A DNA stretch of 64,000 nt from assembly GCA_946410085.1 (NCBI GenBank), contig CAMJZA010000001.1, positions 26,797-90,796 on the forward strand, given 5' to 3'. A model generated the notes under the pieces. The model did not search any database. It saw only the letters and a list, made by a program, of their open reading frames with translations, and had not been told where the DNA came from. Numbering within the stretch: the stretch's first letter is position 1; every line of letters starts with the position of its first letter. Made by a program: the position numbers and the translations under genes. This document shows, one piece after another, positions 19,667 to 63,777 of this stretch. Source of the stretch: an uncultured Treponema sp. GTDB lineage: Bacteria; Spirochaetota; Spirochaetia; Treponematales; Treponemataceae.

Positions 19667-20863
19667 ATGCTTGAGGACTTCCTTGACGCCCTGCAGAATT
19701 TCAGGCGCAACAGGATGCGCACCTTCCTCTCCCTGCTCGGCATCATCATCGGCGTTGCCTCGGTCATCGTCATCATGAGCATGGGCCAGTCGTCCACGCA
19801 GAAAATCAAGGATACCTTCGGTTCGGCGGGTCTGGACATGGTAAGCCTGTCCGGTGGCTTCTTCCGCAGGAGCCGGGCTGCGGTCACGATAAGCTTCGAC
19901 GAACCCTTCCGGGAAAAGCTCTTTGACAGCGTCACGGGCATTAAGAAAATCTGGTACAGGAACTCCCTTTCTGCGACGATTTCCTACGGCGAAAGCAGTG
20001 CCAGCGCTTCCTGTGCGGCGGTCGAAACCGATTACATGCGTTCCTGCGGCATTCAGCTGGAACGAGGGAAATATTTTGACGTAACCGATGACGTGATGGG
20101 AGCCCAGCGGATCATTCTGGGCAGCAGCATCGCTTCGACCCTCTTTCCCAACGGGGATGCGGTGGGAAAGCAGGTCATGCTCGTTACCGGCAATGCGCCG
20201 TTCAGCTTTACGGTGGTCGGCGTACTTAAGGAGCAGACGTCGGGCATGGAAAATACGAGCCAGGGCTGCTACATCCCCCGGGGCTTTTATGCCCGCAAGA
20301 TAAAGCCCAACCCGCCCGCCGATACCGTCATGGTACAGGCAGAAAGCGAGGCCCTTGCGGTGAGCCTGCGCGACAGGCTGGAAGCATACTGCAACAGCCT
20401 GACCGGAACGGAAGGTTCCGTATCTGCAACGTCCATGCAGACGATGATCGAACAGATGGGGTCGATTACGGGCGTCCTGAGCCTGCTGCTGGCGGTCGTG
20501 GCGGGCATATCGCTGCTGGTCGGCGGCATCGGCATCATGAACATCATGATTGTGACGGTGACCGAGCGCAGGCAGGAAATCGGCATCCGCAAGGCGCTCG
20601 GTGCCAGTCCCGCCCTCATCCGCCGCCAGTTCCTCGTAGAGTCTGCCGGCATAACCGTGATGGGCGGCCTTCTGGGCATTGTCCTGGGCATTGCGATAAG
20701 CATTGCCGTTGAGTACGTGCAGGCCGTGCAGAGCTTTGTCGTCAGCTGGACCGCCTGCCTCGTGGCCTTTGCCTTTTCCCTTTTCGTCGGCATCTTCTTC
20801 GGCCTGTCGCCTGCTTCCCGGGCCGCCCGTCTGGACCCGGTGGAAGCCCTCTCCGGGGAGTAG
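19667..20863 (+). CDS. ABC transporter permease (MacB/FtsX type)
   Basis: N-terminal TM, a large periplasmic domain, then the C-terminal FtsX 4-TM block ending ...ASRAARLDPVEALSGE, a typical family terminus. Confidence 0.9.
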   Translation: MLEDFLDALQNFRRNRMRTFLSLLGIIIGVASVIVIMSMGQSSTQKIKDTFGSAGLDMVSLSGGFFRRSRAAVTISFDEPFREKLFDSVTGIKKIWYRNSLSATISYGESSASASCAAVETDYMRSCGIQLERGKYFDVTDDVMGAQRIILGSSIASTLFPNGDAVGKQVMLVTGNAPFSFTVVGVLKEQTSGMENTSQGCYIPRGFYARKIKPNPPADTVMVQAESEALAVSLRDRLEAYCNSLTGTEGSVSATSMQTMIEQMGSITGVLSLLLAVVAGISLLVGGIGIMNIMIVTVTERRQEIGIRKALGASPALIRRQFLVESAGITVMGGLLGIVLGIAISIAVEYVQAVQSFVVSWTACLVAFAFSLFVGIFFGLSPASRAARLDPVEALSGE

Positions 20864-20865
20864 GG
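20798..20865. repeat. Direct repeat DR-A, left copy (authentic 3' end of the permease gene)
   Basis: 68 bp: TTCGGCCTGTCGCCTGCTTCCCGGGCCGCCCGTCTGGACCCGGTGGAAGCCCTCTCCGGGGAGTAGGG. Identical to 24542-24609. Confidence 0.95.
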
Positions 20866-20942
20866 GAACCGGCGGCGGTCATTGTTCCGTCAGGTGTGCC
20901 CGGACGATGTTCGGACTTTCTGTTCCATCGGAGGGAGGCTCT

Positions 20943-20971
20943 TTGACATAGCCCCCGTTTTGCTGTAAAAT
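20943..20971 (+). promoter_or_regulatory. Promoter of the glf cassette
   Basis: TTGACA, 17 nt, TAAAAT. AAGGA Shine-Dalgarno lies about 9 nt before the GTG start at 20995. Confidence 0.55.
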
Positions 20972-20994
20972 ACCCTGTCAAATAAGGATACACT

Positions 20995-22128
20995 GTGGAA
21001 CAAAGGAAATATGACCTGCTGATTGTCGGATCCGGTCTTTATGGGGCAACGTTCGCCCGGCTTGCAAAAGAGGCTGGCAAACGCTGCCTTGTAATCGAGA
21101 AACGCCCTCATACCGGCGGCAATGTCCATTGTGATTCGAAAGAAGGAATCAACATCCACAGGTACGGTGCTCATATCTTTCATACCTCCAGCAGGAAACT
21201 CTGGGATTTTGCAGGCAAATTCGTTACGTTCAACCGCTATACGAATTCACCGCTTGCAAACTACCGGGGCAGACTGTTTAACCTGCCCTTTAACATGAAC
21301 ACATTCTACGCAATGTGGGGAGTGACGACCCCTGCCGAGGCAATGGCGCGGATCCGGGAACAGCAGTCTCAGCTGACATCTGCCCCCCGGAATCTTGAGG
21401 AGCAGGCAATCGCCCTTGTCGGAAGCGACATTTACAGAATACTTGTAAAAGAGTATACGGAAAAGCAGTGGGGACGTCCCTGCACCGAGCTTCCTCCTTT
21501 CATAATACAGAGGCTTCCCGTCCGTTTTACCTTCGATAACAACTATTTCAGCGACTGTTACCAGGGTATTCCGATAGGGGGCTACAACAAGCTTACAGAC
21601 GCCTTGCTTGAGGGAACCGAGGTGATTACGGGTATTGATTTCTTTGCCGATCGTGTGCGGCTGGAGTCCCTTGCTTCTCGGCTTGTCTTTACCGGACGAA
21701 TCGACGAGTTTTTCGGCTATCAGTACGGCAGGCTCGAGTACCGCACGGTTCGTTTCGAGACGGAGACGCTGGATATGCAGAATTATCAGGGGAACGCCGT
21801 CGTCAACTTTACGAGCTGTGACGTACCCTACACGCGGATTATCGAGCACAAGCATTTCGAGCCTGAAAATCCTGCTTACAGTAGTCCGGTGACTGTCATA
21901 TCCCGGGAATACTCCTCGGAGTGGACGGATGGTGCGGAGCCGTTTTACCCGATCAACGATACCAGAAATACAGAACTTTATCAGCAGTATAAGGCTCTTG
22001 CGGACCGGCAGAGGAATGTCCTTTTTGGCGGTCGGCTTGCGGAATACAAGTACTACGATATGGATGACGTGATGGAAAAGGCGATGAATGACTTTGATGA
22101 ATTCATGAGGAGTGGAACGGAACGATGA
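20995..22128 (+). CDS. glf: UDP-galactopyranose mutase
   Basis: N-terminal FAD fold YDLLIVGSGLYGATFA, then the GGNVHCDS..GINIHRYGAHIFHTS pattern characteristic of Glf. 377 aa. Confidence 0.9.
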   Translation: MEQRKYDLLIVGSGLYGATFARLAKEAGKRCLVIEKRPHTGGNVHCDSKEGINIHRYGAHIFHTSSRKLWDFAGKFVTFNRYTNSPLANYRGRLFNLPFNMNTFYAMWGVTTPAEAMARIREQQSQLTSAPRNLEEQAIALVGSDIYRILVKEYTEKQWGRPCTELPPFIIQRLPVRFTFDNNYFSDCYQGIPIGGYNKLTDALLEGTEVITGIDFFADRVRLESLASRLVFTGRIDEFFGYQYGRLEYRTVRFETETLDMQNYQGNAVVNFTSCDVPYTRIIEHKHFEPENPAYSSPVTVISREYSSEWTDGAEPFYPINDTRNTELYQQYKALADRQRNVLFGGRLAEYKYYDMDDVMEKAMNDFDEFMRSGTER

Positions 22129-22850
22129 ACGGTGTATTATACCTTGTCCTCCCTGCATATAATGAAGAAGAGAATATAGAGGCTGTTGTCCGTTCCTGGT
22201 ATACGGTCCTTGACGGGAAGGCTGAAGAATCGCGGATAGTCATCGCAGACAGCGGGAGCAGCGACGGGACGCACGGAATACTCGAAAGGCTCTGCCAGGA
22301 GTTTCCCAAGCTCATCGTTCTGAGTTCCACAGGCCGGTATCACGGTGAGAAACTGATAGCCCTCTATGACTATGCGATACAAAACGGGGCGGAATGGATT
22401 TTTCAAACTGACTCAGACGGGCAGACTGATCCTGCCGAATTTGCTTCCTTCTGGAATATGCGGGAAGACTGTGACGGCATCTTCGGTAACAGGCACGTGC
22501 GCGGCGACGGATTCATCAGGGCGTTTGTCGAAAAGGTTGTGTGCTTCCTGCTCAGGCTTTACTTCGGCGTAAAGGTACCGGATGCAAATGCCCCTTTCAG
22601 GCTGATGCGGGCAGACATCGTGAAGAAGTACCTCTACCGGATGGATGCGGATTATAACCTGCCGAATATCATGCTGGTGACCTGGTTCGTCTATTACGGA
22701 GAGCGGTATGCGTTCAGGGAAATCTCCTTCAGGTCCCGGCAGGGCGGGGTCAACTCAATCAACATCCGCAAGATTTTCAAAATCGGCTGGAAAGCCCTCG
22801 GTGATTTCAGGAAGTTGAAGCAGGCTATGAGAGGAAATTCAAAAAAATGA
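22125..22850 (+). CDS. Family 2 glycosyltransferase
   Basis: LVLPAYNEEENI and the DxD-like TDSDGQ motif. ATGA overlap with glf. Confidence 0.85.
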   Translation: MNGVLYLVLPAYNEEENIEAVVRSWYTVLDGKAEESRIVIADSGSSDGTHGILERLCQEFPKLIVLSSTGRYHGEKLIALYDYAIQNGAEWIFQTDSDGQTDPAEFASFWNMREDCDGIFGNRHVRGDGFIRAFVEKVVCFLLRLYFGVKVPDANAPFRLMRADIVKKYLYRMDADYNLPNIMLVTWFVYYGERYAFREISFRSRQGGVNSINIRKIFKIGWKALGDFRKLKQAMRGNSKK

Positions 22851-24541
22851 GTTTGCGCATACGGTTGACGGCAAGACAGAAGTTTTTTGCAGTACTTTGC
22901 TTTGTGCTGCCGGCTGTACTTCTGTTTATTCCCGTCATTCAGAGCTTGCTTATATCTGCCGGCGGTAAAATATTAGGACGGACGCTGAATCATCCCGGGG
23001 TATGGGAAAAAAGAATCCAGCGGACTGGTTTGTACCTGCTGTGCGTTCCACTGCTGTATTTCTTCTTTTCTCTGGAGAGTCTGTTTGCCGCAGCGAAGAG
23101 AAAGTTTGTTTCGGGGACCATACGCTGTGCAGTTCTTTTGTTCTTGGCCTTTCTTACGAGCAGTCTGTTCGCCCTGTTTCCCTTTAAGGTTCAGTATCCG
23201 TGCTCGGACAGTGCCGTGTTCATCTCCATAGGCAGGATGATGCACCTTGGAAGAATTCCCTATCGGGATATATTCGATCACAAGGGAATTGTCCTCTATT
23301 TCATCGAGTATCTTGGAACCTTCGCCGGAGGCTATACCGGGGTGTATCTCATCGAGCTTGCCGGCATGTTTGCCACGGTCATCTTCATATACAAGGCGGC
23401 GGCACTTTCCTGCAGGAACGAGACCGTTTGTCTCCTGACCTCATTTTTTTCAGTTTACATGCTTGGTTCCAGAATGTATGAGGGGGCGAACCTTTCTGAG
23501 GAATATGCCTTGCCCTGTATTGCGTTCTCAAGCTATGTCTTTCTCCTGTATCTTAGGACGGGACAGTGCAGGTTCTTTGATTTCTTTTTTGTCGGACTGA
23601 CCTTTACAGCCGTCCTGCTGCTCAGGGTGAATATGGTTGCTCCCTGGGCTTTCTATGTCCCTTATTTTCTGGTAATCCTGCTGAAGGACCGGAAGTATTC
23701 CGACTTGAAAACGATGGTGGCAGGATTTGCCTGCGGGATGATCGTGCTTTTCATTCCCGTCATGGTGTATTTCCATGTAACGTCCAGCTTCCGTGCTATG
23801 TGGGAGACCTATGTTCTGTTCAATCTTATGTATGTCTCCGACGAGGGGGAACTGCGGAATGTGCTCGGCGTCATGCGGATGTTTGTCAGCGTATTCGCCT
23901 TTCCCTGTATCTGCCAGTTTGCGGCAGTCCTGCAGCAGGGAAAGGACAGGTATCACGTTATCAACGCGCTTGTTTTCCTTGTGACCCTGCTCTCCGTGTC
24001 TGTCTCCGGGAGGGCTTATCCGCACTACGGAATCATTCTGCTTCCCCTCTGTGTTCTACCCGTTGCGTACGTTCTTGAAAAATTGCGGGAGAACCTGTCA
24101 CTTTGCGCCGGTGTGACAGCGGCTCTTGTTTCGCGGTTCTGTCTGTCTCTCCTGATTCTGATTCCCCTGCTGGGCCTTCCCAATCCGATGAAGCCGGGCA
24201 GGATTTGGCAGGACTCTATCGTGCGATACCTTCGGAAAGAGACAGCTCCCGACTCTGATGTGCTTGTTCTGGCTAATGAGGCTAAGTATTATATCGCTGC
24301 GGAACGTTACACCAGGCAACGGTTCCTGTTTCAGGAGCCTGTCATACGGCAGGATTCTGCGCTGATGAGGGAGTTTGAGGAAGGCGTACGGGCGAATCCT
24401 CCTGACTATATTGTGCTGTCGGGCTACCACTGGAACTGGCTCCATATGCCGCTTCTTTCCGGTATCAGGGAGTTTCTGGACGCATCCTACAGCAGGGTGG
24501 ATTTCCCGGAGGGCATCGTATTCAGAAAGGACAGGGAGTGA
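22847..24541 (+). CDS. Polytopic membrane protein, probable GT-C-like glycosyltransferase or polymerase (GtrC analogue)
   Basis: 564 aa with about 12 hydrophobic helices followed by a ~100-aa soluble C-terminus. ATGA overlap with the GT2 gene. No confident family recognised. Confidence 0.5.
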   Translation: MSLRIRLTARQKFFAVLCFVLPAVLLFIPVIQSLLISAGGKILGRTLNHPGVWEKRIQRTGLYLLCVPLLYFFFSLESLFAAAKRKFVSGTIRCAVLLFLAFLTSSLFALFPFKVQYPCSDSAVFISIGRMMHLGRIPYRDIFDHKGIVLYFIEYLGTFAGGYTGVYLIELAGMFATVIFIYKAAALSCRNETVCLLTSFFSVYMLGSRMYEGANLSEEYALPCIAFSSYVFLLYLRTGQCRFFDFFFVGLTFTAVLLLRVNMVAPWAFYVPYFLVILLKDRKYSDLKTMVAGFACGMIVLFIPVMVYFHVTSSFRAMWETYVLFNLMYVSDEGELRNVLGVMRMFVSVFAFPCICQFAAVLQQGKDRYHVINALVFLVTLLSVSVSGRAYPHYGIILLPLCVLPVAYVLEKLRENLSLCAGVTAALVSRFCLSLLILIPLLGLPNPMKPGRIWQDSIVRYLRKETAPDSDVLVLANEAKYYIAAERYTRQRFLFQEPVIRQDSALMREFEEGVRANPPDYIVLSGYHWNWLHMPLLSGIREFLDASYSRVDFPEGIVFRKDRE

Positions 24542-24609
24542 TTCGGCCTGTCGCCTGCTTCCCGGGCCGCCCGTCTGGACCCGGTGGAAGCCCTCTCCGG
24601 GGAGTAGGG
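24542..24609. repeat. Direct repeat DR-A, right copy (non-coding duplicate of the permease 3' end)
   Basis: Starts 1 nt after the cassette's last stop codon. 68/68 identical to 20798-20865. Confidence 0.95.
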
Positions 24610-24630
24610 CCCGTAAACGCCGCGCACCCT

Positions 24631-24784
24631 GCGCATAGACTATGGGGCCTGTGCACATAGACTATGGGGCGTGTGCGCATAGACTACGGGGCCTGTGCGC
24701 ATAGACTATGGGGCCTGTGCGCATAGACTACGGGGCCCCTGCACATAGACTATGGGGCCCCTGCACATAGACTATGGGGCCCCT
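24631..24784. repeat. Seven tandem copies of a 22-bp unit
   Basis: Consensus GCGCATAGACTATGGGGCCTGT. Unit starts: 24631, 24653, 24675, 24697, 24719, 24741, 24763. Each unit contains the small palindrome ATAG-A-CTAT. The last three units end CCCT instead of CTGT. Confidence 0.95.
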
Positions 24785-31810: not shown

Positions 31811-31865
31811 GACGGCAGGCTGACTGCGGCCTTGCGCGGCATCGGGGCCGCGCGGGGCCCGGTCT

Positions 31866-32192: not shown

Positions 32193-32237
32193 CATTCCGG
32201 CGGGATGCGGGCAGGGGCGTCATGGGGCGGGCGGGCA

Positions 32238-36784: not shown

Positions 36785-36797
36785 GAGCCGGAGCGGA

Positions 36798-36806
36798 GGG
36801 GGGGGG
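36798..36806. repeat. G9 homopolymer between two copies of CAGCGCTAGG(A/C)GCCGGAGCG
   Basis: Read directly from the sequence, 14 nt after the RSH stop codon. Confidence 0.9.
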
Positions 36807-37016
36807 CAGCGCTAGGCGCCGGAGCGTGACGGACGGGGCAGAGGGCGGATGGGGCAGGGGTGACCCGGACGCCGCGCGGTGGTGACAGGGCTACGGGAGG
36901 TTGAGTTTGCGGAACGGCTGGAGGGCTGCGGAGAAAACACAAAAAAATGCATTTTTTTGTGTTACCTTCGGAATCCTGCTTTGTTAGTAAAAACCGCATT
37001 TTTTTTTCGAAAAAGC

Positions 37017-44701: not shown

Positions 44702-44702
44702 A

Positions 44703-48417: not shown

Positions 48418-48440
48418 TTTTCCCGGTTCCGCCCTATAAT
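48412..48440 (+). promoter_or_regulatory. Consensus promoter abutting the sanA-like start codon (leaderless)
   Basis: TTGCAA, 17 nt, TATAAT, then 8 nt to ATG 48449. Confidence 0.6.
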
Positions 48441-48448
48441 TGCCCCTC

Positions 48449-49120
48449 ATGAGGGTAAAAAGAGCTGTTCTCACGGTCATGCTTTCCGTAATCGTCCTGA
48501 CGGGCCTGTTCTGCGTGGGCGTGAACCTGTATGTGATTGCATACGCCCGTCCCTACGTCTACCGGGACGTGGAATCCCTTCCTTCCCGGTATACGGTCAT
48601 TCTTCCCGGCGCGAAGGTCTACCGCAATACGGTTTCCCATGTCGTTGCCGACCGTATTGAAGGCACGCTCCGCTGCATTCAGGCGGGCAAGGCCGAGCGC
48701 ATCCTTGTTTCCGGTGATCACGGGAGGCGGGACTATGACGAGGTGAACCAGATACTTGCCTACATGCAGCGGGTCTACGGGACTGACGACAGCATCATCT
48801 TTCTGGATCATGCGGGCTTTTCCACCTACGAGACGGTCTACCGGGCGCGCGACGTGTTCTGCGTGAAGGATGCAATCATCGTGACCCAGAAGTTCCACGT
48901 GTACCGGGCGGTCTACATTGCCCGCAGGCTCGGCCTGGACGCCGTTGCCCTCGAAGCTCCGGAACTGTACCCTTATGCGCGGACCATGCGCGACAGCTGG
49001 GAACTGCGGGAGTTCTTTGCACGGGTCAAGGCCTTTTTGTATGTGGCCTTTGGCGTCCGCCCCACCTACCTCGGCGAACAGATTCCCATCACCGGCGACC
49101 CCGCGGCGAGCCGGGACTGA
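48449..49120 (+). CDS. SanA/YdcF-family (DUF218) membrane protein
   Basis: N-terminal TM, then ILVSGDHGRRDYDEVN..FLDHAGFSTYETVYRA..IVTQKFHVYRAVYIARRLG, typical of SanA. Confidence 0.8.
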   Translation: MRVKRAVLTVMLSVIVLTGLFCVGVNLYVIAYARPYVYRDVESLPSRYTVILPGAKVYRNTVSHVVADRIEGTLRCIQAGKAERILVSGDHGRRDYDEVNQILAYMQRVYGTDDSIIFLDHAGFSTYETVYRARDVFCVKDAIIVTQKFHVYRAVYIARRLGLDAVALEAPELYPYARTMRDSWELREFFARVKAFLYVAFGVRPTYLGEQIPITGDPAASRD

Positions 49121-49139
49121 GTTCCGCTGCGGGCAGGAA
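49093..49139. repeat. Direct repeat DR-B, left copy (authentic 3' end of the sanA-like gene)
   Basis: CGGCGACCCCGCGGCGAGCCGGGACTGAGTTCCGCTGCGGGCAGGAA. 46/47 identical to 51891-51937. Confidence 0.9.
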
Positions 49140-49342
49140 GTGAGTTCCGCTGCGGGCAGGAAGGGGGCCCTGCGCTGCAGGCAGGAAGTGAGCTTTTTGA
49201 CCGGCCCGTGGTACAACGCGGGGGCTAGTAATTGTCTGTGTTCTGTGATATAGTTATATGCCTGTAATTCTTTAGCTGACAGGGCTTTTGCGGATTACAG
49301 GCCGTAAGCAGTATCGATTTTATTTTGGGCAGAAGTGTATAC

Positions 49343-50479
49343 ATGAAGACTCTATCTTTGGTCATTCCTTGCTACAATGAAGAAAAAACACTGGCAGACA
49401 TCGTGGAGCGGTGCCTTTCCTTCCTTTCCCCCCAGGCTTCTGCCGGAATTGCAAGCGACAGCCTCAGGCTGGAGCTGATAATCGTGAACGACTGTTCAAC
49501 GGACGGAAGCGATGCCGTTGCCCGTTCTCTGGCAGAGAAGTATCCGGATGCCGTGAAGTACTTTACGCACGGGAAGAACATGGGAAAAGGGGCCGCACTC
49601 AGGACCGGCTTCCTTGCAGCGACCGGAGACTTTGTCGGCATACAGGATGCGGACATGGAATACAGTCCGCATGACTATCTGACCATGCTGGAACCGCTGC
49701 TGGACGGCAGGGCCGACGTCGTATACGGCAGCCGCTACCTCCTGCCTGACACAAGGCGGGTACTCTACTGGTGGCATACGCGGATGAACCGCTTCCTGAC
49801 GACGTTCAGCAATATGTTCACGAACCTTGACATAACTGACATGGAAACCTGCTACAAGCTCTTCCGTCGGGAAGTCATTCAGGAAATTGCCCCCAAACTG
49901 AAGGAAAACCGCTTTGGTTTTGAGCCGGAGGTAACCGCCCTCGTTGCCCGCGGCGGCTACAGGGTGTATGAGTGTGCAATCCATTATACTCCGCGCACGA
50001 CCGAAGAAGGCAAGAAGATAAACTGGAAGGACGGTGTCCGTGCCCTGTACTGCATCATGCACTACGGCGCAAGTACCGCCCCGCTTCCCATGCAGCTCAT
50101 CCTGTATTTCCTCATCGGGGCATTCAGTGCGGTCTGCAACCTGCTGTCCTTCCTGCTGATGCGGCGGATCGGAGTTGCTTTTACCCATTCCGTGATTGCT
50201 TCATTTGTCCTGTCGGCACTGCTGAACTACCTCCTGTGCATTGCATTCCTGTTCCGCCACAAGGTGAAGTGGAATGCCTTCGGGGAACTTGCGGCATACC
50301 TCCTGTCTGCGGCCGTGATGGGTACGCTTGACTGGTGGCTGACGGGCATGCTCTATTCGTCGGGCATGACGGAAGGAGCTGCGAAGGCTGTTGCCGCAAC
50401 TGCGGGGTTCTTCGGAAACTTCATCCTGCGGCGGTTCATTGTATTCCCGGAACGCAGGCAGGGGAAAAAAGGCAGCTGA
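49343..50479 (+). CDS. Family 2 glycosyltransferase fused to a GtrA-like 4-TM domain
   Basis: VIPCYNEEKT, VNDCSTDGS and QDADMEY motifs. The C-terminal ~125 aa (LILYFLIGAFSAVCNLLSFLLM...FFGNFILRRFIVF) matches the GtrA-like flippase pattern. Confidence 0.8.
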   Translation: MKTLSLVIPCYNEEKTLADIVERCLSFLSPQASAGIASDSLRLELIIVNDCSTDGSDAVARSLAEKYPDAVKYFTHGKNMGKGAALRTGFLAATGDFVGIQDADMEYSPHDYLTMLEPLLDGRADVVYGSRYLLPDTRRVLYWWHTRMNRFLTTFSNMFTNLDITDMETCYKLFRREVIQEIAPKLKENRFGFEPEVTALVARGGYRVYECAIHYTPRTTEEGKKINWKDGVRALYCIMHYGASTAPLPMQLILYFLIGAFSAVCNLLSFLLMRRIGVAFTHSVIASFVLSALLNYLLCIAFLFRHKVKWNAFGELAAYLLSAAVMGTLDWWLTGMLYSSGMTEGAAKAVAATAGFFGNFILRRFIVFPERRQGKKGS

Positions 50480-50508
50480 CGGTAACTGACGGGATAAAAG
50501 GCGTCCCG

Positions 50509-51792
50509 CTACAGGCCCTTCTGCCGGAATTGTTTCTGAAGCTCGTAAAAATCCCAGCAGGGATTTGGATCTGTCCGTTCAACGCCGTTCATATACAGGT
50601 CCCTGATACGGTAGTCATCATACCAGTCTCGTGTGTGAAGCAGATCGACATGCCCCAGAAAGGAGCAGAGGAATAAAGCGAGCAGCAGGGCATGTGCGAT
50701 TCCTGCGCAGCGGGCAGGAAGCTGAAGACGGGCCTTTAGCTGTGCATGCATGCCATGTACAAGCTCCCCTCCTCCCATTACTGCAAGCGGATAGGACGGT
50801 ATCAGCAGCCTCTGCAGGAAAGTTCCCCGTTTGAATACAAACACTATTGCAAGCATGACAAGTATATGCACGAAAAACGTAACCGCAAGTCCACACCCTT
50901 TTAACCTTGCCTTGAAAAGCATAAAGATGGTAGATAGCCCTGCTCCGATGCCGAGCAGCCAGTACAGGGCGCTTGGAAACCTGCTGGCATGGGTCGCCAG
51001 AAAAACATACTCACGGATATAAAAGATAAATCCTGCACGGTCCGTCCGGAAAAGGGGCATTCCTTTCTCAATGTCGCTCACCCGGAAATGATATATGAGT
51101 ATCAGGAGGACAGGGATGATGCAGAGGGCAATCTGCACCATGCTTCTTTGGAGGAATGCAAAAAAGTCTTTCTGCACTATGAGCCGTACTGCGGTAACGG
51201 TTAAAACAGAGAAAAGGATGAGCAGGCTTACGGAATTGGCGTACGCAGAGCAGATGAGTGTAAAGAGGCATATCCATATATCGCCGGGACTATTGTCCGA
51301 AAGGTATTTCCTGAAATGTATGAGTGCAAAAAAGACAAGCGCAGCACACATGCCGTAGCCGCGCGCAAGCCCGAAGAACTCATTGAGGTAATAGGAGAAG
51401 GCGAGCAGCGTAAACTCAATCCAGCTGACAGAACCTTTTGAGCGGCATCGGGCCAGAAAGATATAATAAAAGACGCCGGACGCAAGGACAGGGAGCCGTA
51501 CGACAAATTCGCAGAACCTCACGCCGGTCAGGCGGGTGACGGCTGCAATCAGCATTGTATTGAGCAGGTGGTTGTTCGCTACGGAATCAAGGTACAGTTC
51601 TTTCAGCATTCCCGGTGAAACATGATCGCTGAGTGCAAGTGCATAGCAGAGGTAGGTGTATGACTCATCGTATGTCATTGCAGAACAGGCGGCCCGTGTT
51701 ATGACCGTGATTACCGGCAGCAGGACAAGGATATAGGGCAGACAGCCTGCAATTTTTTCATGGGCACAGTTTTGCATTCGTATTCCTTTCAT
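50509..51792 (-). CDS. Polytopic membrane protein (GtrC-like candidate)
   Basis: 427 aa, almost entirely hydrophobic helices. Convergent with the GT2-GtrA gene, with a 29-nt gap. Confidence 0.55.
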   Translation of the reverse strand: MKGIRMQNCAHEKIAGCLPYILVLLPVITVITRAACSAMTYDESYTYLCYALALSDHVSPGMLKELYLDSVANNHLLNTMLIAAVTRLTGVRFCEFVVRLPVLASGVFYYIFLARCRSKGSVSWIEFTLLAFSYYLNEFFGLARGYGMCAALVFFALIHFRKYLSDNSPGDIWICLFTLICSAYANSVSLLILFSVLTVTAVRLIVQKDFFAFLQRSMVQIALCIIPVLLILIYHFRVSDIEKGMPLFRTDRAGFIFYIREYVFLATHASRFPSALYWLLGIGAGLSTIFMLFKARLKGCGLAVTFFVHILVMLAIVFVFKRGTFLQRLLIPSYPLAVMGGGELVHGMHAQLKARLQLPARCAGIAHALLLALFLCSFLGHVDLLHTRDWYDDYRIRDLYMNGVERTDPNPCWDFYELQKQFRQKGL

Positions 51793-51813
51793 GTTCCTTT
51801 TCCGCAGGTATGC

Positions 51814-51842
51814 ATTATAGTGCGTCTTTCATCGGTATACAA
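51814..51842 (-). promoter_or_regulatory. Promoter of the 50509-51792 membrane protein gene
   Basis: Minus strand: TTGTAT, 17 nt, TATAAT. AAAGGA Shine-Dalgarno before ATG 51792. Confidence 0.55.
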
Positions 51843-51890
51843 GGGGACCGGCGGCCACGCTGCTGGCAGGAACTGAACTCTGCTGCGAGT

Positions 51891-51937
51891 CGGCGACCCC
51901 GCTGCGAGCCGGGACTGAGTTCCGCTGCGGGCAGGAA
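51891..51937. repeat. Direct repeat DR-B, right copy
   Basis: CGGCGACCCCGCTGCGAGCCGGGACTGAGTTCCGCTGCGGGCAGGAA. The single difference (G to T) is synonymous in the sanA reading frame (GDPAASRD-stop). Confidence 0.9.
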
Positions 51938-52056
51938 CGGATCCCTGCGGCCTGCCCTGCGCTGTAACCTCAGCCGCTTGCCTGGTACAGCTCTTTTCCT
52001 GCCTGCCCGTGAACATCCCCGCTTTTCCGCAGGTGAACTTAAATTTTTAACATCTC

Positions 52057-57805: not shown

Positions 57806-58122
57806 TTTTTGCCCCAAAGAGTATAGGGGCGGACCCGGCTGACGGCGGGGCCACACGGTGAGTCCCCTCTTGGCGGTACCAGAAAGCCCGTTTGCCACGA
57901 CCGTCCCAGCCTCTCAAAGCAAAAGGTGGAGGTTTCGGATTTTCCATGCAGCCACAGGAATAAATCAATTCTTAAAAACAGATTGACCTTAATCATATCA
58001 ATGGAATGCGTAAAGAGGAGGAAACTCCCGGACGACCTTCCTGCAGAGGGATTCCATTTAAGATTTTGTCCTAAAAGCCCGTGCAGTCTTGCTTTACTCA
58101 AGCGTTTTGCCGCATGAAACTC

Positions 58123-58205
58123 AAAGGTTTGGTCACGTGAAGCTTAAACGTTTGGTCGTGTGAAGCTTAAACGTTTGGTCGTGTGAAGCTTAAACGTTTG
58201 GTCAT
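58123..58205. repeat. About 3.5 tandem copies of a 23-bp unit upstream of parA
   Basis: AAA(G/C)GTTTGGTC(A/G)(C/T)GTGAAGCTT at 58123, 58146 and 58169, with a partial copy at 58192. The first unit carries the palindrome TCACGTGA. Confidence 0.95.
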
Positions 58206-58307
58206 TGAATCAATGAGAGTTGTAGCCATAAGATTTAAATTCTAGCCAGGATTAGGCTCCCGAAACGGTAATCAGATAGTGACAAGACATCCGACCCATG
58301 ATACAGA

Positions 58308-58490
58308 GTGACAAGCATTCACGCATATTATGACGGGCAGAATTATGTGACTCAAGGAGCTGTCGACGTAAAACCGAACCAGAAGGTCATCATCACTCTT
58401 TTTGATGACTTTATGCCGCCCCGTAGCAAACGGTCGCTTTCAGAGATAAAGCCAACTCAAAGTCCATTCCTGACGGAATATCGGCGGTAG
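58308..58490 (+). CDS. Small ORF resembling a DUF104/AF2212-type antitoxin N-domain (orphan, possibly a remnant)
   Basis: SIHAYYDGQNYVTQGAVDVKPNQKVIITLFDD follows the pattern (I/V)xAxY(E/D)(N/G)G...V.I(T)(I/L). GTG start, no obvious Shine-Dalgarno, no toxin partner. Confidence 0.3.
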   Translation: MTSIHAYYDGQNYVTQGAVDVKPNQKVIITLFDDFMPPRSKRSLSEIKPTQSPFLTEYRR

Positions 58491-58573
58491 ACTATATTTG
58501 TCAGCTAAGGGAGGAATGATGCTTAGTTGCAGCAAGTATTGGGGCAGTGCCCCCCTGCCCCGCTTACCCGCCG

Positions 58574-59932
58574 TCACAAACACATCGTCATATATATCGG
58601 GATGAAACTGACATCCGCCTTCTCATCTCTGAACAAGTCTTTTGTATAGATTATAAAACGTTCGTGTTTCTTTTGTTTGTATTTCTTTACGAAGCAGTCG
58701 ATGGATTCGTGCTGCCTGTAGCTGGAGGATTTTACTTCTATCGGAACAATTCTTTTGTCTTTCACAATCAGGAAATCGATTTCATACTTTTGTTCCGTGG
58801 AACTATTCTCCTTCTGATAAAAAAATTCGTGAAAATATAAATCGTATCCCCTTGTGCGGAGCATCTGTGCGACCATATTCTCCATCACCATCCCGAGGTT
58901 TGTTCCCAACTTGTTGAAAATAAGCTTCCTGTAAATATCTCCGTCGGTCTCTTCCGAGCTCTTCATAATCTGCGTAACAAGAAGCCCTGTGTCGCCCATG
59001 AAAAGCTTAAAATTGGAGGAATCGGCGAACAGCTCGAGCGAGAGTTCAGGGATCGTGACATTCTTGCAGCAGTTTGCCATCATTGAGTCGCTGAGGAATT
59101 TTATGGACCGGATGTAATTCTTGTAGCGTGCGTTTTTGTCAACAATCGAAAACTTGAAGAGGGAATTATGATTTGAGAGCTGCTCTGCCAGCGTCGCAAA
59201 GACTGCGGATGTTTTTTCGGTGTTCTCATCATCGTATTTTTCCAAATCCTCTTCGTACAGGGTAAGAATCGAGCGTTTCACGGCATCTATAGTTGAGTAA
59301 GACTGTTTCTCAACAAAAGCTGCCACAGCTTGCGGCATTCCACCAACGGCAAGATAGGTCCTGAAGCTCTGCATTATCTTCCGGTGGATGGTATCCCCGA
59401 GCGGAAGCCGCTTTTCAAAATGCTCTCTGATTATCTTCGCGGTAATCGTATCTCCTGTCGCCCACAGGAATTCCTCAAAATCCATCGGGTACATCCTGCA
59501 TCTGTGTTCCTCAGAGGGAATCAGAATCTGTGCGCTCTTCTTCTTTATGGTGATGAGGGAACCGGTCTCTATGTAATCGAAGCGACCGTCCTGCACCAGA
59601 TACTTTATTGCCTGCCGGGCCTGCGGAAAGAGCTGTATATCATCGAGTATTATGACGCTTTCGCGTGGAGCGAGTTCTTTCTGCTTCAGGACGAACAGAT
59701 TGTTAAAAAAACTGTCCATATCGGAAAGACCGTCCGCGAACAGTCTTTTGACATCGGGACTTTCCCGCGCGAAGTCCAGAAGGATATAATCCCTGTACTC
59801 GTTCTTCGCAAAAGTCTCCGCTATGGTCGATTTGCCGATGCGTCTGGCTCCTTCGATGAGAATCGCATTTTTCCCGTCGAATGTGTGCTTCCAGTCCAAG
59901 AGCACGTCGTAAAACTTCCGCCTGAAGTCCAT
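58574..59932 (-). CDS. AAA-family ATPase with a DUF4143 C-terminal domain
   Basis: Walker A GARRIGKST, Walker B-like VIILDDIQ. C-terminal YEIDFLIVKDKRIVPIEVKSS is a restriction-endonuclease-like motif typical of DUF4143 proteins. Low G+C. I start at MDFRRKF (ATG 59932). Confidence 0.8.
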   Translation of the reverse strand: MDFRRKFYDVLLDWKHTFDGKNAILIEGARRIGKSTIAETFAKNEYRDYILLDFARESPDVKRLFADGLSDMDSFFNNLFVLKQKELAPRESVIILDDIQLFPQARQAIKYLVQDGRFDYIETGSLITIKKKSAQILIPSEEHRCRMYPMDFEEFLWATGDTITAKIIREHFEKRLPLGDTIHRKIMQSFRTYLAVGGMPQAVAAFVEKQSYSTIDAVKRSILTLYEEDLEKYDDENTEKTSAVFATLAEQLSNHNSLFKFSIVDKNARYKNYIRSIKFLSDSMMANCCKNVTIPELSLELFADSSNFKLFMGDTGLLVTQIMKSSEETDGDIYRKLIFNKLGTNLGMVMENMVAQMLRTRGYDLYFHEFFYQKENSSTEQKYEIDFLIVKDKRIVPIEVKSSSYRQHESIDCFVKKYKQKKHERFIIYTKDLFRDEKADVSFIPIYMTMCL

Positions 59933-59954
59933 ATCTCGGATTATACAGTTTCTT

Positions 59955-60036
59955 CCCGAAATTTGCAAATGTTTTTTGCCGAAAATTCCCGAAATTTGCA
60001 AATCTTTTACCCCATTTTTTCACGAAATTCGCAAAT
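59955..60036. promoter_or_regulatory. Three 33-bp-spaced copies of a palindrome-containing box upstream of the DUF4143 ATPase gene
   Basis: CCCGAAATTTGCAAAT at 59955 and 59988, CACGAAATTCGCAAAT at 60021. ATTTGCAAAT is a perfect 10-bp palindrome. Confidence 0.5.
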
Positions 60037-60050
60037 CTTGTCCGGTTCAG

Positions 60051-60062
60051 CCCCCCCCCCCC
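60051..60062. repeat. C12 homopolymer in the divergent intergenic region
   Basis: Twelve consecutive C residues read directly from the sequence. They lie 57 nt upstream of ATG 60120 and 118 nt upstream of ATG 59932 on the opposite strand. Confidence 0.95.
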
Positions 60063-60119
60063 AACAGTCAGCTTTTGTGACGAACGCGGGGCCCGTTTGT
60101 TTAAGTTATGGAGGAATGC

Positions 60120-60827
60120 ATGAAAAGGACAATCATAAGCGCGGCCATCTGTGCCGCACTGTTATCAAGCGCGGCCACAGCGCAGAGGAAGGGTTCGGGG
60201 GCCCTTTTCCCGGATACCTGGGGCGGAGAGAAATCGCTCGCGGTCAAGTCCGACTGCGTGACGGCCGAGGGCGACTTCAACATGGACGGCTTCAAGGACA
60301 TCGCTGTCATCGCCGTGCCCCGGGCCCCCGCCCTCATGCGCACCCGCGAGGACGGCTACGAATGCAACTTCAACAAGCCCGTGCTTGCGGTATTCTTCGG
60401 GCAGAAAAGAGGCAAGCCCAAGCTGCACAAGGAATACAGGGACACGATTCCCGGCAATGACGCGGAGAACGAGGACTGCTTCCATGAGAGCTCGCTGTCG
60501 GTCAACGACGAGGGCGACCTCTGCATCACCGTGAGCGAATTCTATTCGGCGGGCAGCTCCGACTCCCCAAGCTTCGAATATGTCTTCCGCTGGCAGGACG
60601 GTGACTTTTTCCTCATCGGCAGGAACTACGGCTCGTTCTCGCGCTATTCGGGCGAGGCCATGAACGTCAACGAAAACTACCTGACGCACAAAAGGCGGAC
60701 GGTGACCTACAATATGTTTGATGAGGATGTACCGGAAGAGGAAATATGGACGGAGCTGTTTGACGCGCCGCTCCGGACGCTCGGTTCGGATATGCTCACC
60801 GTGTCCGAAGTTGATGCCGTCGGCTGA
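60120..60827 (+). CDS. Secreted protein of unknown function (one FG-GAP-like motif)
   Basis: Signal peptide MKRTIISAAICAALLSSAATAQ. DFNMDGFKDIAVIAV resembles an FG-GAP/VCBS calcium-binding turn. Confidence 0.6.
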   Translation: MKRTIISAAICAALLSSAATAQRKGSGALFPDTWGGEKSLAVKSDCVTAEGDFNMDGFKDIAVIAVPRAPALMRTREDGYECNFNKPVLAVFFGQKRGKPKLHKEYRDTIPGNDAENEDCFHESSLSVNDEGDLCITVSEFYSAGSSDSPSFEYVFRWQDGDFFLIGRNYGSFSRYSGEAMNVNENYLTHKRRTVTYNMFDEDVPEEEIWTELFDAPLRTLGSDMLTVSEVDAVG

Positions 60828-60868: not shown

Positions 60869-60981
60869 GAGGTTGCGCTTTAGCGCAACCTCATTGGCCA
60901 CTGTGACGGCCTGCCTTTGAAACCCGCGAGCCGGCCAGAGGCCGGCTCGTTGGCCAATGTAAACGGCGGTAGCCGTTTACA
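60869..60981. repeat. Three perfect hairpins; the first two form a duplicated REP-like unit
   Basis: CCCGCGAG-GTTGCGC-ttta-GCGCAAC-CTCATTGGCCACTGT and CCCGCGAG-CCGGCC-aga-GGCCGG-CTCGTTGGCCAATGT. Then TGTAAACGGC-ggta-GCCGTTTACA, which overlaps the SDR stop codon. Confidence 0.75.
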
Positions 60982-61750
60982 TGGCCGTATACCCGCCGTC
61001 CACGGGCAGGTTCACGCCGGTAACATAGCTTGAGGCGGGACTTGCCAGGAAGATGGCAGCCGTGTCCAGCTCGCCTTCCTTGCCGTAGCGTTCTTCGGGA
61101 ATCATCGTCTTTGCGTTCTGCTGGAAGAAGTCGGAGTCCAGCGTCTCCCGCGTCAGGTCCGTATAGAAGTAGCCCGGGCAGATTGCGTTGACCGTGATGC
61201 CGTACTTGCCCCACTCGGCGGCAAGCGCACGGGTCATATTGACGACACCGCCCTTCGCCGCATGGTAGGGGGCGGACCCGGCTATCTTGTTGCCGACCAG
61301 TCCGTACATCGAAGCGATGTTGATGATGCGGCCGTACTTGGCAGGAATCATCGCTTTCTTGGCAACAGCGCGGGCGACGCGGAAGGTGCCGAAGAGGTCT
61401 ATGTTCATCTCGTTGTGGAACTGCTCGTCGGTGATGTCCTCTGCCGGAGCAACGGCGCCGGTTCCCGCGTTGTTGATGAGGATATCTATTCTGCCGAACT
61501 TTTGCAGCACTTCGTCAACAGCTGCATCGACCGCAGCGGTATCCGTGATGTCGCAGGGAATTGCAAGCGTCTGCACCCCGAATTCATCAGCTATCTCTTT
61601 GGCGACTGCGTCAATCTTTGCCTTGCGGCGGGCGAGGGCGACAATGTTTGCCCCCTGGTTTGCCAGTGCCTTTGCCATCTGCACGCCCAACCCTGCCGAA
61701 CAGCCCGTCACGATGGCGACCTGCCCCTTCAAATCAAAATATGATTTCAT
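60977..61750 (-). CDS. Short-chain dehydrogenase/reductase (gluconate-5-dehydrogenase / 3-oxoacyl-ACP reductase-like)
   Basis: Cofactor motif VTGCSAGLG, NNAG, catalytic YHAAKGG. Confidence 0.9.
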   Translation of the reverse strand: MKSYFDLKGQVAIVTGCSAGLGVQMAKALANQGANIVALARRKAKIDAVAKEIADEFGVQTLAIPCDITDTAAVDAAVDEVLQKFGRIDILINNAGTGAVAPAEDITDEQFHNEMNIDLFGTFRVARAVAKKAMIPAKYGRIINIASMYGLVGNKIAGSAPYHAAKGGVVNMTRALAAEWGKYGITVNAICPGYFYTDLTRETLDSDFFQQNAKTMIPEERYGKEGELDTAAIFLASPASSYVTGVNLPVDGGYTAM

Positions 61751-61864
61751 ATAAAAACCTCGTATCCGTTACGGCCCCGGTTAGAAAGGGCTAATAACTG
61801 TGTTTGCCCCTATTATATGAAAAAACGTAAGAAAGGCAAGCCTCGGGGCGGAGCCGGACGCATC

Positions 61865-61945
61865 GCAGGACAGGTCACAGGCTCTTTTGAATGTCCTCGG
61901 CGACATCAAGGAGGAGGGCCTGCTGCTTTTCCGGCAGGGATGCGT
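61865..61945. repeat. Direct repeat DR-C, left copy (relic of the XRE gene 3' end)
   Basis: 73/81 identical to 63697-63777; the last 36 nt are identical. The minus strand reads ..DASLPEKQQALLLDVAEDIQKSL-stop, against ..YASLPEKQQALLLAVAEDIQKAL-stop in the intact gene. Confidence 0.9.
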
Positions 61946-61961
61946 CGATTAGAGATGTCCC

Positions 61962-63542
61962 CTATGCCTCCACGACCTTCCAGCCGCCGAGCGTGCGGGA
62001 CTGCGCATCGAAGCTCGCGCCTATCTTGAAAAGCTTTTTGGGCCTGCCGTCCGCCCCGACGGATGCCTCGTAGGGTATGAGGTATCCCTTGGAATCTATC
62101 TGCGCGAGGACCTCCTCCACCGTCCCGTCCAGCTTGAACTCAAAGACGTAGACCGCATCCTGTGTCTCCACGACCATGTCGCTGCGACCTGCCGCGCTCG
62201 CCTCCTCGGTCCTGACACCGAAGGGCGTGCACAGGCGGGCTATCAGGAAGAAGACGGTGTTGTAGTGATTTTCGTCCTGCTTCTCCGCGTTGTAGGGGAT
62301 AGAGCTGAAGAAAGATCGCATGAGCGTCATGGCATCTTCCAGATTACCTTCCCGCAGGAAGCGGCTGAATTTAAGCAGGAAGGTGTCGTTCTGGCTCACG
62401 GTCTTCGCCGCATAATAGGGCAACAGGCAGTGCAGGAATCCGTACCGAACCTCCTCGTTGGGGAAGCCCAGCGTGTATGAATAGCCGTCGTAGTCCTTTA
62501 TGGTGACATAGCCCGACTGGTAGAGCATGGGGACCGGGTCTCCTGCTTCCTCTGCGGGAGCATCGAACATGTCCGCCGTCGCGGGGAAGCCCCGGTCAAG
62601 CTCGTCCGGGTCAATGTCGTACTTCTTGATGAGCTGGGTCAGTACGGTCGGCGTACCGGTTGAGAACCAGTAGTTGTCCAGCTCCCCATCCGTCAGCGAC
62701 CGTATCAGGCTGAAGGGGTTGTACACGTCAGGCGAGCGCCTGGTGAAGTGGTAGCCGTCGTATTTCTTCCTCAGGGCCTCGACAGCCCCCTCGTAGGTCA
62801 GCCCATGCCTGTCCGCGAGCGCCTGTATCTCGGGCTGCATCTGGCTCAGCAGTTCCTCACTGGTGATTCCGCATATCGCCGCGTAACGGTCGTTCATTGT
62901 TATCACGTTCAGGTTGTTCAGCTCGCTGAATATCGAAAGCTGGCTGAACCTCGTTATACCCGTCAGGAAGACGAAACGCAGAATTCCCCCAAGGTCCTTG
63001 AGGGGGCTGAAGAACTTGCGCATCTCCATCTTGAGCTTCTTCTGCATCTCCGGGTCGTCCATCGTGTCCAGGAGGGGAGCGTCGTACTCGTCCACCAGAA
63101 CGACCGGCTCCTCCCCTGTCTTGTCGTGGACGGCCTTTATCAGACGTTCGAACCGTGTCCCCCATGCACCGATTTTTCCGGCCTCAAGCCCGTACTCCTT
63201 CTCCCATTCGGAAAGCTTGTAGTCCAGCGTATCCGACAAATCCTCCTTGGTGACGTACTTGTTGCCCGCGAAACTCACGTGGAACACGGGATGAACCTTC
63301 CACTCCTTCTCAAACCCCTCCATCGCGAGCCCCTCGAACAAGTCCTTCCTGCCCTCGAAGTAGCACTTGAGCGTTGAGACGAGGAGGGACTTGCCGAACC
63401 TGCGCGGTCGGCTCAGGAAGTAGACACGTCCTGCGCTGACCATTTCGTGGATTATGGCGGTCTTGTCAACGTAGTAGTATCCGTTCCGCCGTATCTGGGC
63501 GAAGTCCTGCAGTCCAATGGGGAAACGCTTGAGTCCGTTCAT
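61962..63542 (-). CDS. AAA-ATPase_like N-domain plus PD-(D/E)XK nuclease (PDDEXK_9/DUF1703) protein
   Basis: FPIGLQDFAQIRRNGYYYVDKTAIIHEM...YFLSRPRRFGKSLLVSTL is the signature N-terminus of this multicopy family. The C-terminal RSDMVVETQDAVYVFEFKLDG is the nuclease core. I start at MNGLKRF (ATG 63542). Confidence 0.85.
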   Translation of the reverse strand: MNGLKRFPIGLQDFAQIRRNGYYYVDKTAIIHEMVSAGRVYFLSRPRRFGKSLLVSTLKCYFEGRKDLFEGLAMEGFEKEWKVHPVFHVSFAGNKYVTKEDLSDTLDYKLSEWEKEYGLEAGKIGAWGTRFERLIKAVHDKTGEEPVVLVDEYDAPLLDTMDDPEMQKKLKMEMRKFFSPLKDLGGILRFVFLTGITRFSQLSIFSELNNLNVITMNDRYAAICGITSEELLSQMQPEIQALADRHGLTYEGAVEALRKKYDGYHFTRRSPDVYNPFSLIRSLTDGELDNYWFSTGTPTVLTQLIKKYDIDPDELDRGFPATADMFDAPAEEAGDPVPMLYQSGYVTIKDYDGYSYTLGFPNEEVRYGFLHCLLPYYAAKTVSQNDTFLLKFSRFLREGNLEDAMTLMRSFFSSIPYNAEKQDENHYNTVFFLIARLCTPFGVRTEEASAAGRSDMVVETQDAVYVFEFKLDGTVEEVLAQIDSKGYLIPYEASVGADGRPKKLFKIGASFDAQSRTLGGWKVVEA

Positions 63543-63696
63543 GTCCCCATCATAGCACGGCCGGGGCGGAAAGTCGAGGGCGGGCGGAGTACCTGGAACT
63601 TGCCCGGAGATGACGGCCTTTGCCTCCTGCGTCCTGCCGTTACGGGCGTAGGAGAAAAAGAAATAGTTCGTAGTACACTGCGGATTCGGCCACAGT

Positions 63697-63777
63697 GCAG
63701 GACAGGTCACAGGGCTTTCTGTATGTCCTCGGCGACGGCGAGGAGGAGGGCCTGCTGCTTTTCCGGCAGGGATGCGT
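63697..63777. repeat. Direct repeat DR-C, right copy (authentic 3' end of the XRE gene plus 10 nt)
   Basis: See the left copy at 61865-61945. Confidence 0.9.

Follow-up and report, generated by a model that had tools for sequence, protein, structure and literature searches.

How do genes come to stand directly behind an intact chromosomal gene, closed off by a second, non-coding copy of that gene's 3' end, with no recombinase gene beside them? The question is raised by a stretch of 64,000 nucleotides from an uncultured Treponema sp. (contig CAMJZA010000001.1, positions 26,797 to 90,796; hereafter the window), in which an earlier note, made from the sequence alone, had pointed out three such places: glf, a GT2 glycosyltransferase gene and a membrane-protein gene behind a MacB-type permease gene (cassette a), a GT2/GtrA gene and a membrane-protein gene behind a sanA-like gene (cassette b), and an AAA-ATPase_like/PDDEXK_9 gene next to the tail of an XRE-like regulator gene (case c). 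All three direct-repeat pairs were confirmed, with 68/68, 46/47 and 73/81 identical positions, and Pfam agrees with the gene content proposed for the three cassettes. Cassettes a and b are true insertions: the empty sites of conspecific strains hold the repeat only once. The window is chromosomal and comes from a rumen Treponema, the top matches to its MacB protein being Treponema metagenome-assembled genomes from goat and cattle rumen, and its host genes have a G+C content at third codon positions (GC3) of approximately 0.75 to 0.83. The conspecific contigs, from metagenomes, were found by protein look-ups and have 93 to 99% nucleotide identity to the window (samples containing these strains include SRR25388725, SRR25388743, ERZ27298201, SRR33322330, and SRR33322341); they and other related Treponema loci are cited below by their L numbers.

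Cassette a lies behind a MacB-type ABC permease gene (19667..20863, plus strand; Pfam MacB_PCD and FtsX), whose product is 98% identical to the MacB protein of conspecific contigs (P0001). The left repeat copy (20798..20865, plus strand) takes in the final 21 MacB codons with the stop codon and runs 2 nt past the latter, and the right, non-coding copy (24542..24609, plus strand) is identical to it at all 68 positions. The cassette between them (20866..24541, plus strand) opens with a 129-nt leader (20866-20994) that holds a terminator-like hairpin (20900-20914) and a promoter (20943-20971) that had been proposed earlier and that scored 11/12 in our promoter scan, followed by glf (20995-22128, plus strand; Pfam GLF), the GT2 gene (22125-22850, plus strand; Pfam), and a gene for a membrane protein of the Ccs4_N family (22847-24541, plus strand; precomputed PF27757), at whose stop codon the cassette ends exactly. 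Its G+C content is 0.49 to 0.51 versus approximately 0.60, and its GC3 is 0.59 to 0.64 versus 0.78 to 0.83; the lower G+C that the earlier note had ascribed to all inserts is thus evident in cassette a, and it is weak in cassette b and absent in case c (GC3, 0.79).

Conspecific contig L161 presents the precise empty site of cassette a, consisting of MacB, one 68-mer (11132-11199), a 22-nt tandem array, and a DUF4015 gene, and its two alignments to the window overlap by exactly 68 bp at this point. The right 68-mer copy of the window is followed by CCCGTAA.. and the 22-nt array, just as the single copy of L161 is. In two further samples (L198 and L199) the cassette was found at 99.06% identity, with the same joint as in the window from the membrane-protein stop codon to the first base of the 68-mer, these contigs ending 30 and 11 nt into the 68-mer. 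The duplicated 68-mer is recipient DNA, with no tail imported from a distant donor, because both copies carry this species' own variants and related species differ from them at about nine positions. In L162, unrelated DNA begins inside the 22-nt array and not at the repeat.

Searches further afield added less. Homologous glf-GT2-membrane protein units in other organisms have no flanking repeats. A MacB scan of genome contigs returned other species alone, at no more than 91% amino acid identity and without conserved downstream synteny, and therefore gave no information on empty sites; a MacB homologue with 90% identity (P0005) has a different synteny and added nothing, and a scan of metagenome contigs gave no match above 69% amino acid identity. 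Exact protein look-ups with the MacB and glf products of the window found no match, in the case of glf probably because its GTG start was read as V. Three apparent leads were rejected: glf adjoining MacB in L035 and L037 as an instance of cassette a, these being convergent native neighbours; a similarity of the start of the cassette to what follows the MacB stop codon in L002, which failed in alignment; and the reading of the last two membrane-protein codons as a MacB end (AGGGAGTGA versus GGGGAGTAG), which at 9 nt is too short.

Two other variable features were observed around MacB. A low-GC islet of about 1 kb with a PIN-domain toxin gene (window 18682-19665) lies between a glycoside-hydrolase-like gene and MacB, is bracketed by a 5-nt GCTAG repeat, and is missing in L161 and L162; a PIN protein with 91% identity occupies the equivalent position in the related species L003. 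In L142, another Treponema species, an 82-bp direct repeat (7994-8075 and 12900-12981, 96% identity) surrounds HlyD-ABC-MacB and an AAA-ATPase_like gene, the second copy overlapping the end of the latter, and this may be another long-duplication event at a MacB operon.

The host gene of cassette b (48440..49120, plus strand) is DUF218/SanA-like, with a Pfam match to DUF218 and an NCBIfam SanA match below the cut-off. The left repeat copy (49093..49139, plus strand) holds the last eight sanA codons, the stop codon, and 19 nt, with additional 23-nt array units continuing beyond it to about position 49192. The right, non-coding copy (51891..51964, plus strand) matches it at 46 of 47 positions (98%) over 51891-51937 and continues into the post-tail sequence common to empty sites; self-BLAST extends the homology to 49124-49174 and 51899-51949. 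The sole difference, G at 49105 and T at 51903, falls on the third base of an Ala codon (GCG/GCT) and is synonymous in the sanA frame, as had been claimed. Cassette b itself (49140..51890) carries a GT2+GtrA gene (49325-50479, plus strand; Pfam), a gene for a 427-aa membrane protein (50509-51792, minus strand), and, at its right end, a degenerate extra copy resembling the sanA tail (51847-51890). The promoter claimed for this cassette, TTGTAT-17-TATAAT near 51842, lies on the minus strand; it is visible by eye and falls below the threshold of the promoter scan.

Three conspecific strains (L164, L173, and L165) are empty at this site, with alignment overlaps that are exactly the repeat and with single repeat copies at L164 10317-10363 and L173 7536-7582. 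The sister species (L195 and L196) also lacks the cassette and has the same sanA tail, again in one copy. Six strains are occupied, always at one and the same site. L163 and L187 are among them, and in another three (L185, L186, and L188) the membrane-protein gene has been lost through a deletion of 50727-51857 that lies between imperfect repeats of 17 to 20 nt. The structure can be followed in full in the independently assembled L163 and L185/L186, and L187 and L188 show one junction. Because the left copy of L185 runs on from the 47 nt through a 23-nt array unit and a further 27 nt of the empty-site post-tail sequence, the original duplication at this site was longer than the 47 bp given by the earlier note, at roughly 74 bp. 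Occupied strains differ in their right-flank sequence, and single-nucleotide polymorphism (SNP) haplotypes around the site are too mosaic to place recombination end points. Candidate microhomologies at the joints are GCTG (4 nt) and CGG (3 nt). The degenerate inner sanA-tail copy could stem from a previous host or from a local tandem duplication, and its synonymous-looking differences are suggestive without deciding between the two.

Case c has the same layout in an older form. The XRE-like regulator gene (63707..64000, minus strand) has a frame open to the window end and an HTH-like sequence, its 5' end lying beyond the window, and the 97-aa fragment gave no Pfam match at 1e-4. Copy B of the repeat (63680..63781, minus strand) contains the last 24 XRE codons, the stop codon, and 27 nt. 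Copy A (61848..61949, minus strand) is a non-coding XRE tail that starts 12 nt after the stop codon of the AAA-ATPase_like/PDDEXK_9 gene (61962..63542, minus strand; Pfam; probable ATG at 63542) and ends where the promoter unit of an SDR gene begins. The repeat, 73/81 over 61865-61945 and 63697-63777, extends to 102 nt at 85% identity (61848-61949 and 63680-63781), and its start moves about 6 nt earlier when a 7-nt indel is allowed.

All conspecific contigs that reach this locus with the AAA-ATPase gene (L163 to L166 and L180) have the adjoining non-coding tail copy, and in the sister species (L177/L178) the tail copy is kept beside a gutted AAA-ATPase remnant, followed by the liv operon and then the SDR gene; in the conspecific contigs L185 and L187, livGF adjoins the SDR gene. 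L163 and L177 have no XRE gene upstream of the AAA-ATPase gene, its position in L163 being taken by an acyltransferase gene. From these comparisons, the repeat of case c predates the species split and its flanks are rearranged, and the layout fits the architecture of cassettes a and b in an old and reworked state. The earlier note had taken the graded identity of the three repeat pairs to mean events of different ages, and the strain distributions agree with it: cassette a is known from the window and two samples, cassette b is polymorphic and absent from the sister species, and the case c repeat is in all covering conspecific contigs and the sister species.

Several further observations concern the surroundings of case c. 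The AAA-ATPase_like/PDDEXK_9 genes have a common leader of about 45 nt (CCGCCCCGGCCGTGCTATGATGG), which for the case c gene is conserved in L163 and L177. A paralogue with 69% amino acid identity to it (L161 2903-4722) is a single-gene presence/absence insertion that replaces 18 nt (window 13405-13422) and ends exactly at its own stop codon; genes of this family also lie next to the MacB operon in L142 and L003, and the family may move as a single-gene unit. The SDR gene and its promoter (window 60969-61847; L177 9904-10786), whose left boundary (61847/61848) is also where repeat copy A ends, are 97% identical to those of the sister species against about 87% for neighbouring genes, and the SDR protein is identical in the two species, pointing to a recent exchange of the unit. 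The gene for a 239-aa secreted or lipoprotein-like product (window 60108-60827) is hypervariable, with 72 to 76% nucleotide identity to L163, L166, L170, and L172 against 97 to 99% in the adjacent parAB region, and is near-identical in L164 and L175.

A fourth variable segment, in L164, L195, and L196, is flanked by a 34-bp repeat that is purely intergenic, and because of this case a gene tail is not obligatory. The repeat brackets a membrane-protein/UbiA/HAD cluster (L164 12220-16074; L195 16893-20660), its second copy starting 3 nt after the HAD stop codon, and the cluster is allelic to a glycosylation cluster of the window with genes for GT2, DUF2304, and a 661-aa membrane protein (44012-47180).

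Across the four sites, the repeats are 34, 47 (approximately 74), 68, and 102 bp long and unrelated in sequence; the inserts of the three window sites measure 1.7 to 3.7 kb. Self-BLAST of 160 related Treponema loci (2.35 Mb) yielded 10 comparable repeat pairs in 8 loci versus 3 pairs in the 64-kb window, where the density is more than 10 times that of related Treponema DNA. In the window and about 2.9 Mb of related Treponema loci, no repeat turned up outside its own locus, so that the generic dispersed elements which the earlier note had named as the outcome that would speak against it were not found. That note had also seen no integrase, transposase, or relaxase in the 64 kb, and no such Pfam domain was present in any scanned open reading frame of the window; none was recorded in the flanks of more than 30 conspecific contigs that were also viewed. 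No motif is common to the repeats of the different sites, and the repeats form no hairpins, their folding being no better than that of shuffled controls (z, -1.3 to +0.9). Viral collections contained neither relatives of the cassette membrane proteins nor copies of the repeats, and a prophage origin is accordingly without support. Integron gene cassettes were rejected, as the repeats do not fold like attC and no integrase was found in the window, and so were DNA transposons, with duplications of variable length instead of a fixed 2 to 14 bp and no transposase in the window; a fixed stagger of the transposase type is ruled out because repeat lengths span 34 to 102 bp.

The reading that we prefer, and to which we would give about an even chance, is that these strain-variable islets were acquired by insertion with long target duplication, through host-driven illegitimate or one-ended recombination, and then spread via flanking homology. 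The insertion polymorphism and the duplication of the target are seen directly in the strains, and from them we infer how the duplication was made. Foreign DNA with its own promoter would enter just behind a core gene, and a recipient stretch across the stop codon (68 bp in cassette a, approximately 47 to 74 bp in cassette b, and approximately 100 bp in case c) would be left on both sides of the insert. Insertion would not be site-specific; host recombination or repair would form two illegitimate or short-homology joints, and if the joint at the insert's right end fell upstream of that at its left end, the interval between the joints would therefore be copied twice. One possible route is a one-ended homologous invasion within the host gene combined with an illegitimate end joint, of the homology-facilitated, 3'-displacement type (precedent in PMC5361080); others are template switching and integration that spans the sister duplexes of a replication fork. 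It has been reported that interchromatid integration during transformation produces a duplication (PMC3784515). Only short duplications would survive, because long ones recombine out, and the joints retained would be those that spare the upstream gene and the downstream regulatory region. Later spread of the islets between strains would need only ordinary homologous recombination of their flanks. A host-driven illegitimate event is favoured by the variable length and unrelated sequences of the repeats, by the recipient type of both copies, by the lack of any recombinase or parent element on record in more than 30 conspecific contigs, and by short-homology events nearby, namely, the GCTAG-bracketed PIN islet, the deletion between 17- to 20-nt repeats, and the variable 22- to 23-nt arrays.

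Several points weigh against this reading. A stop codon lies inside three of the four repeats, which end 2 to 46 nt beyond it, exactly like att sites in gene 3' ends. In cassette b, the older, degenerate tail copy (51847-51890) and the younger one begin within 2 nt of each other, a hint of a recurrent breakpoint, but such a pair could also come from local tandem duplication. The inserts end 0 to 12 nt after the last stop codon in cassette a, case c, and the L164 segment, and such tight ends are not predicted by random joints. Our view of the genome covers 64 kb, and a recombinase could act in trans from elsewhere. The strain polymorphism between empty and occupied sites foreseen by the earlier note was found for cassette a (L161) and for cassette b (three strains and the sister species), and no empty site of case c was found among the conspecific contigs covering the locus or in the sister species.

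Integration by a trans-acting recombinase is the main and a serious alternative, one that we consider possible but rather unlikely. The repeats would be attL and attR of integrase-less elements, such as satellites resembling cis-mobilizable elements (CIMEs) or the decayed cargo ends of prophages or islands, that entered the host-gene 3' end by conservative site-specific integration, the tyrosine or serine recombinase having acted in trans or having been lost afterwards. Inclusion of the stop codon and a few nucleotides, which leaves the host gene intact, the identical site of cassette b in every occupied strain, the near-coincident start of its two tail copies, and the close trimming of the inserts would all follow. 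Modules for glycan modification of the gtr kind are classic att-proximal cargo of lysogenic conversion. CIMEs are a recognised class, and integrative elements have been reported to leave partial target-gene copies and degenerate remnants (10.1101/2020.12.28.424599). CIMEs and other degenerate integrative elements (fda in Streptococcus thermophilus; tycheposon remnants at tRNA genes) likewise show direct repeats of a target-gene 3' end around integrase-less cargo, but their repeats hold a defined core for a cognate integrase known from related elements, whereas neither an integrase nor a larger parent element was seen here in the window or in the flanks of more than 30 conspecific contigs, and the four repeat sequences are unrelated and would require several different recombinases. 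The cassettes are filled by cargo and contain no integrase gene or fragment, none of the strains viewed has a bigger element there (in L162 the divergence begins within the array and not at the repeat), and viral collections hold no related sequence. Comparison of cassette b with its empty site, moreover, reveals a real duplication of about 74 bp with two recipient-type copies and not hybrid sites that share one crossover.

RecA-dependent insertion of the Campbell type appears improbable. In this scheme, a circular cassette that already has a short host-gene tail would recombine with the chromosomal tail, and the repeats could recombine again to regenerate circles. It needs no recombinase, and it would account for the complete or near identity of the repeats (100% and 98%) and for their recipient-type sequence; lengths of 47 to 102 bp are near, but above, the minimal substrates of homologous recombination. 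It leaves unexplained how the first tail copy came into the cassette, for which two illegitimate joints would be needed anyway, and spread between strains is simpler via long-flank exchange. Natural uptake yields linear single strands, which disfavours the integration of circles. The earlier note had leaned toward Campbell- or att-type integration and toward one mechanism for all three cases, and neither proposal was borne out. Repeats of 34 to 102 bp that have no common motif, do not fold, and are recipient-type in both copies read at least as well as a target duplication made in place. We hold with similar reserve the idea, doubtful at present, that rumen Treponema possesses a general mechanism, independent of cargo, for placing small cassettes with their own promoters behind core genes, which would address and duplicate the last 25 to 75 bp of those genes through a trans factor or a programmed property of gene 3' ends, with the 22- to 23-nt palindrome-bearing arrays found at these junctions as recognition sites or footprints. 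If true, long target duplication would be a dedicated integration pathway and not a repair accident.

An assembly artefact or chance, i.e., misjoined metagenome contigs (e.g., a free circle and an empty chromosome that share a 68-mer) or coincidental similarity, is very improbable: the window does come from a 135-kb contig whose close relatives are metagenome assemblies, and Logan contigs do break inside repeats, but cassette b is present in independent assemblies with copies that differ by a SNP and an extra array unit, the right junction of cassette a recurs in two further samples at 99% identity, and locus-unique exact matches of 68/68 and 46/47 are far beyond chance.

The architecture itself belongs to a known class. 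Such insertions with long target duplication were described as early as 2000 (Nobusato et al. 2000; Furuta, Abe and Kobayashi 2010, PMC2853133); their mechanism is unproven, and they have been defined by an insert of less than 20 kb, unique repeats of more than 30 bp, a single copy in the empty-site genome, and the absence of mobility genes (PMC2853133). The sites described here have repeats of more than 30 bp (68, 47/approximately 74, and 102 bp) that are unique to their loci, inserts of less than 20 kb, and no mobility genes in the window scans; a single repeat copy was found in the empty sites of cassettes a and b and not for case c. A few-kilobase insert of atypical G+C is a further likeness, and a Haemophilus influenzae case has 46-bp repeats that overlap a gene 3' end (PMC2853133). 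That survey screened restriction-modification genes alone and proposed DNA breakage by the cargo as the driver (PMC2853133). In contrast, the cargo here is no restriction-modification system, cassettes a and b containing glycosyltransferase and membrane-protein genes without a nuclease, several cases lie within 64 kb of one spirochaete chromosome, and population data reveal occupied, empty, and internally deleted alleles.

A second comparison is with homology-facilitated illegitimate recombination (HFIR), or C-terminal displacement, in Rhs, contact-dependent inhibition, and type VI secretion system effector-immunity arrays (PMC5361080), of which the related locus L136 is a classic Rhs-type example. 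The likeness, an intact gene end followed by a new module and the displaced old gene end with no recombinase, extends to all three sites. In those arrays, however, a variable toxin tip is displaced together with its immunity gene and gives way to a tip unlike it, whereas here the displaced piece is a near-identical tail of 47 to 102 bp with nothing attached, and the host genes are ordinary housekeeping or transport genes. HFIR would be expected to leave microhomology at the illegitimate joint and donor-type sequence in the retained gene end; the left repeat copies here are recipient-type, and GCTG and CGG are possible microhomologies in cassette b.

The cargo of cassettes a and b looks like surface-glycan modification modules, to judge from the predicted polyprenyl-phosphate glycosyltransferase, with or without a GtrA-like flippase domain, and the polytopic membrane protein. 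These resemble the gtrABC O-antigen clusters of temperate phages of Shigella and Salmonella, which combine a polyprenyl-phosphate glycosyltransferase, a GtrA-type flippase domain, and a polytopic membrane transferase in a small horizontally acquired unit, but there is no phage context here, and the likeness is one of cargo function, not of insertion mechanism. The case c cargo is a predicted PD-(D/E)XK-family ATPase, for which PADLOC gave no match.

Intergenic tandem arrays are common in this species. The array between the duplication of cassette a and the DUF4015 gene (24630..24781) has 6.9 copies of 22 nt by TRF with the palindromic core CATAGACTATG, and about four units in L161. Others in the window lie at 36776-36841, 45064-45163, 49118-49192, 51849-51929, and 58115-58209, and in other strains at L163 434-587, L177 1204-1335, L161 3010-3073, and L164 14224-14328. 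Periods are mostly 22 to 23 nt, those of the RelA and 51849 arrays being 31 and 42 nt. Each array has its own unit sequence, several with a palindromic core (CATAGACTATG, GTGTTAAACAC, and AAACGTTT), and three begin at or include a stop codon (RelA, CAGCGCTAG..; DUF2304, CCTTGA..; sanA, TGA..). Copy number varies between strains, and five of the seven intergenic window arrays are at strain-variable junctions.

Not every strain difference is accompanied by long repeats, the PIN islet, the AAA-ATPase paralogue of L161, and a DUF4143 gene being examples. The last lies near parA and parB (56063-57788), which with ssb and a DciA-domain gene are the chromosomal context genes of the window, in a low-GC islet (0.44 to 0.47; window 57833-60140) whose DUF4143/AAA_14/NERD gene matches the PADLOC candidate defence family PDC-S01 (E, 1e-102). 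The islet is present in the window, L164, L169, L173, and L175 and absent, with about 180 nt instead, from, among others, L163, L165, L166, L170, L172, L185, and L186. The ssb-guaA spacer is swapped between strains from the ssb stop codon onward (window 31811-32228; L161 18307-19060), with a DUF4160/DUF2442 gene pair in L161 and a different short open reading frame in the window. A gene at window 3937-4791 has a full-length match to Pfam Adenyl_transf (streptomycin adenylyltransferase; E, 1e-112) and host-like codon usage and may confer aminoglycoside resistance. Small units with their own promoters form a patchwork in this part of the chromosome, and only some of them were inserted with long duplication.

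For a class of insertion that is known but mechanistically unexplained, what is new here is a cargo other than restriction-modification genes and a new phylum, this being a case from a spirochaete and the phylum being absent from the taxa listed in the survey of PMC2853133. A nuclease encoded by the cargo is not needed, because the same footprint brackets nuclease-free glycan-modification cassettes, and the nuclease-free cargo of cassettes a and b argues that the host, not the cargo, makes the event. With several cases in 64 kb, co-occurring alleles in public rumen metagenomes, and three event ages, the species offers unusually good material for a form of recombinase-free gene gain by duplicated gene ends that has rarely been noticed and is so far without explanation in bacteria. 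Probable roles of the islets in this gut symbiont are the diversification of surface glycans and, for neighbouring islets, the carriage of defence genes.

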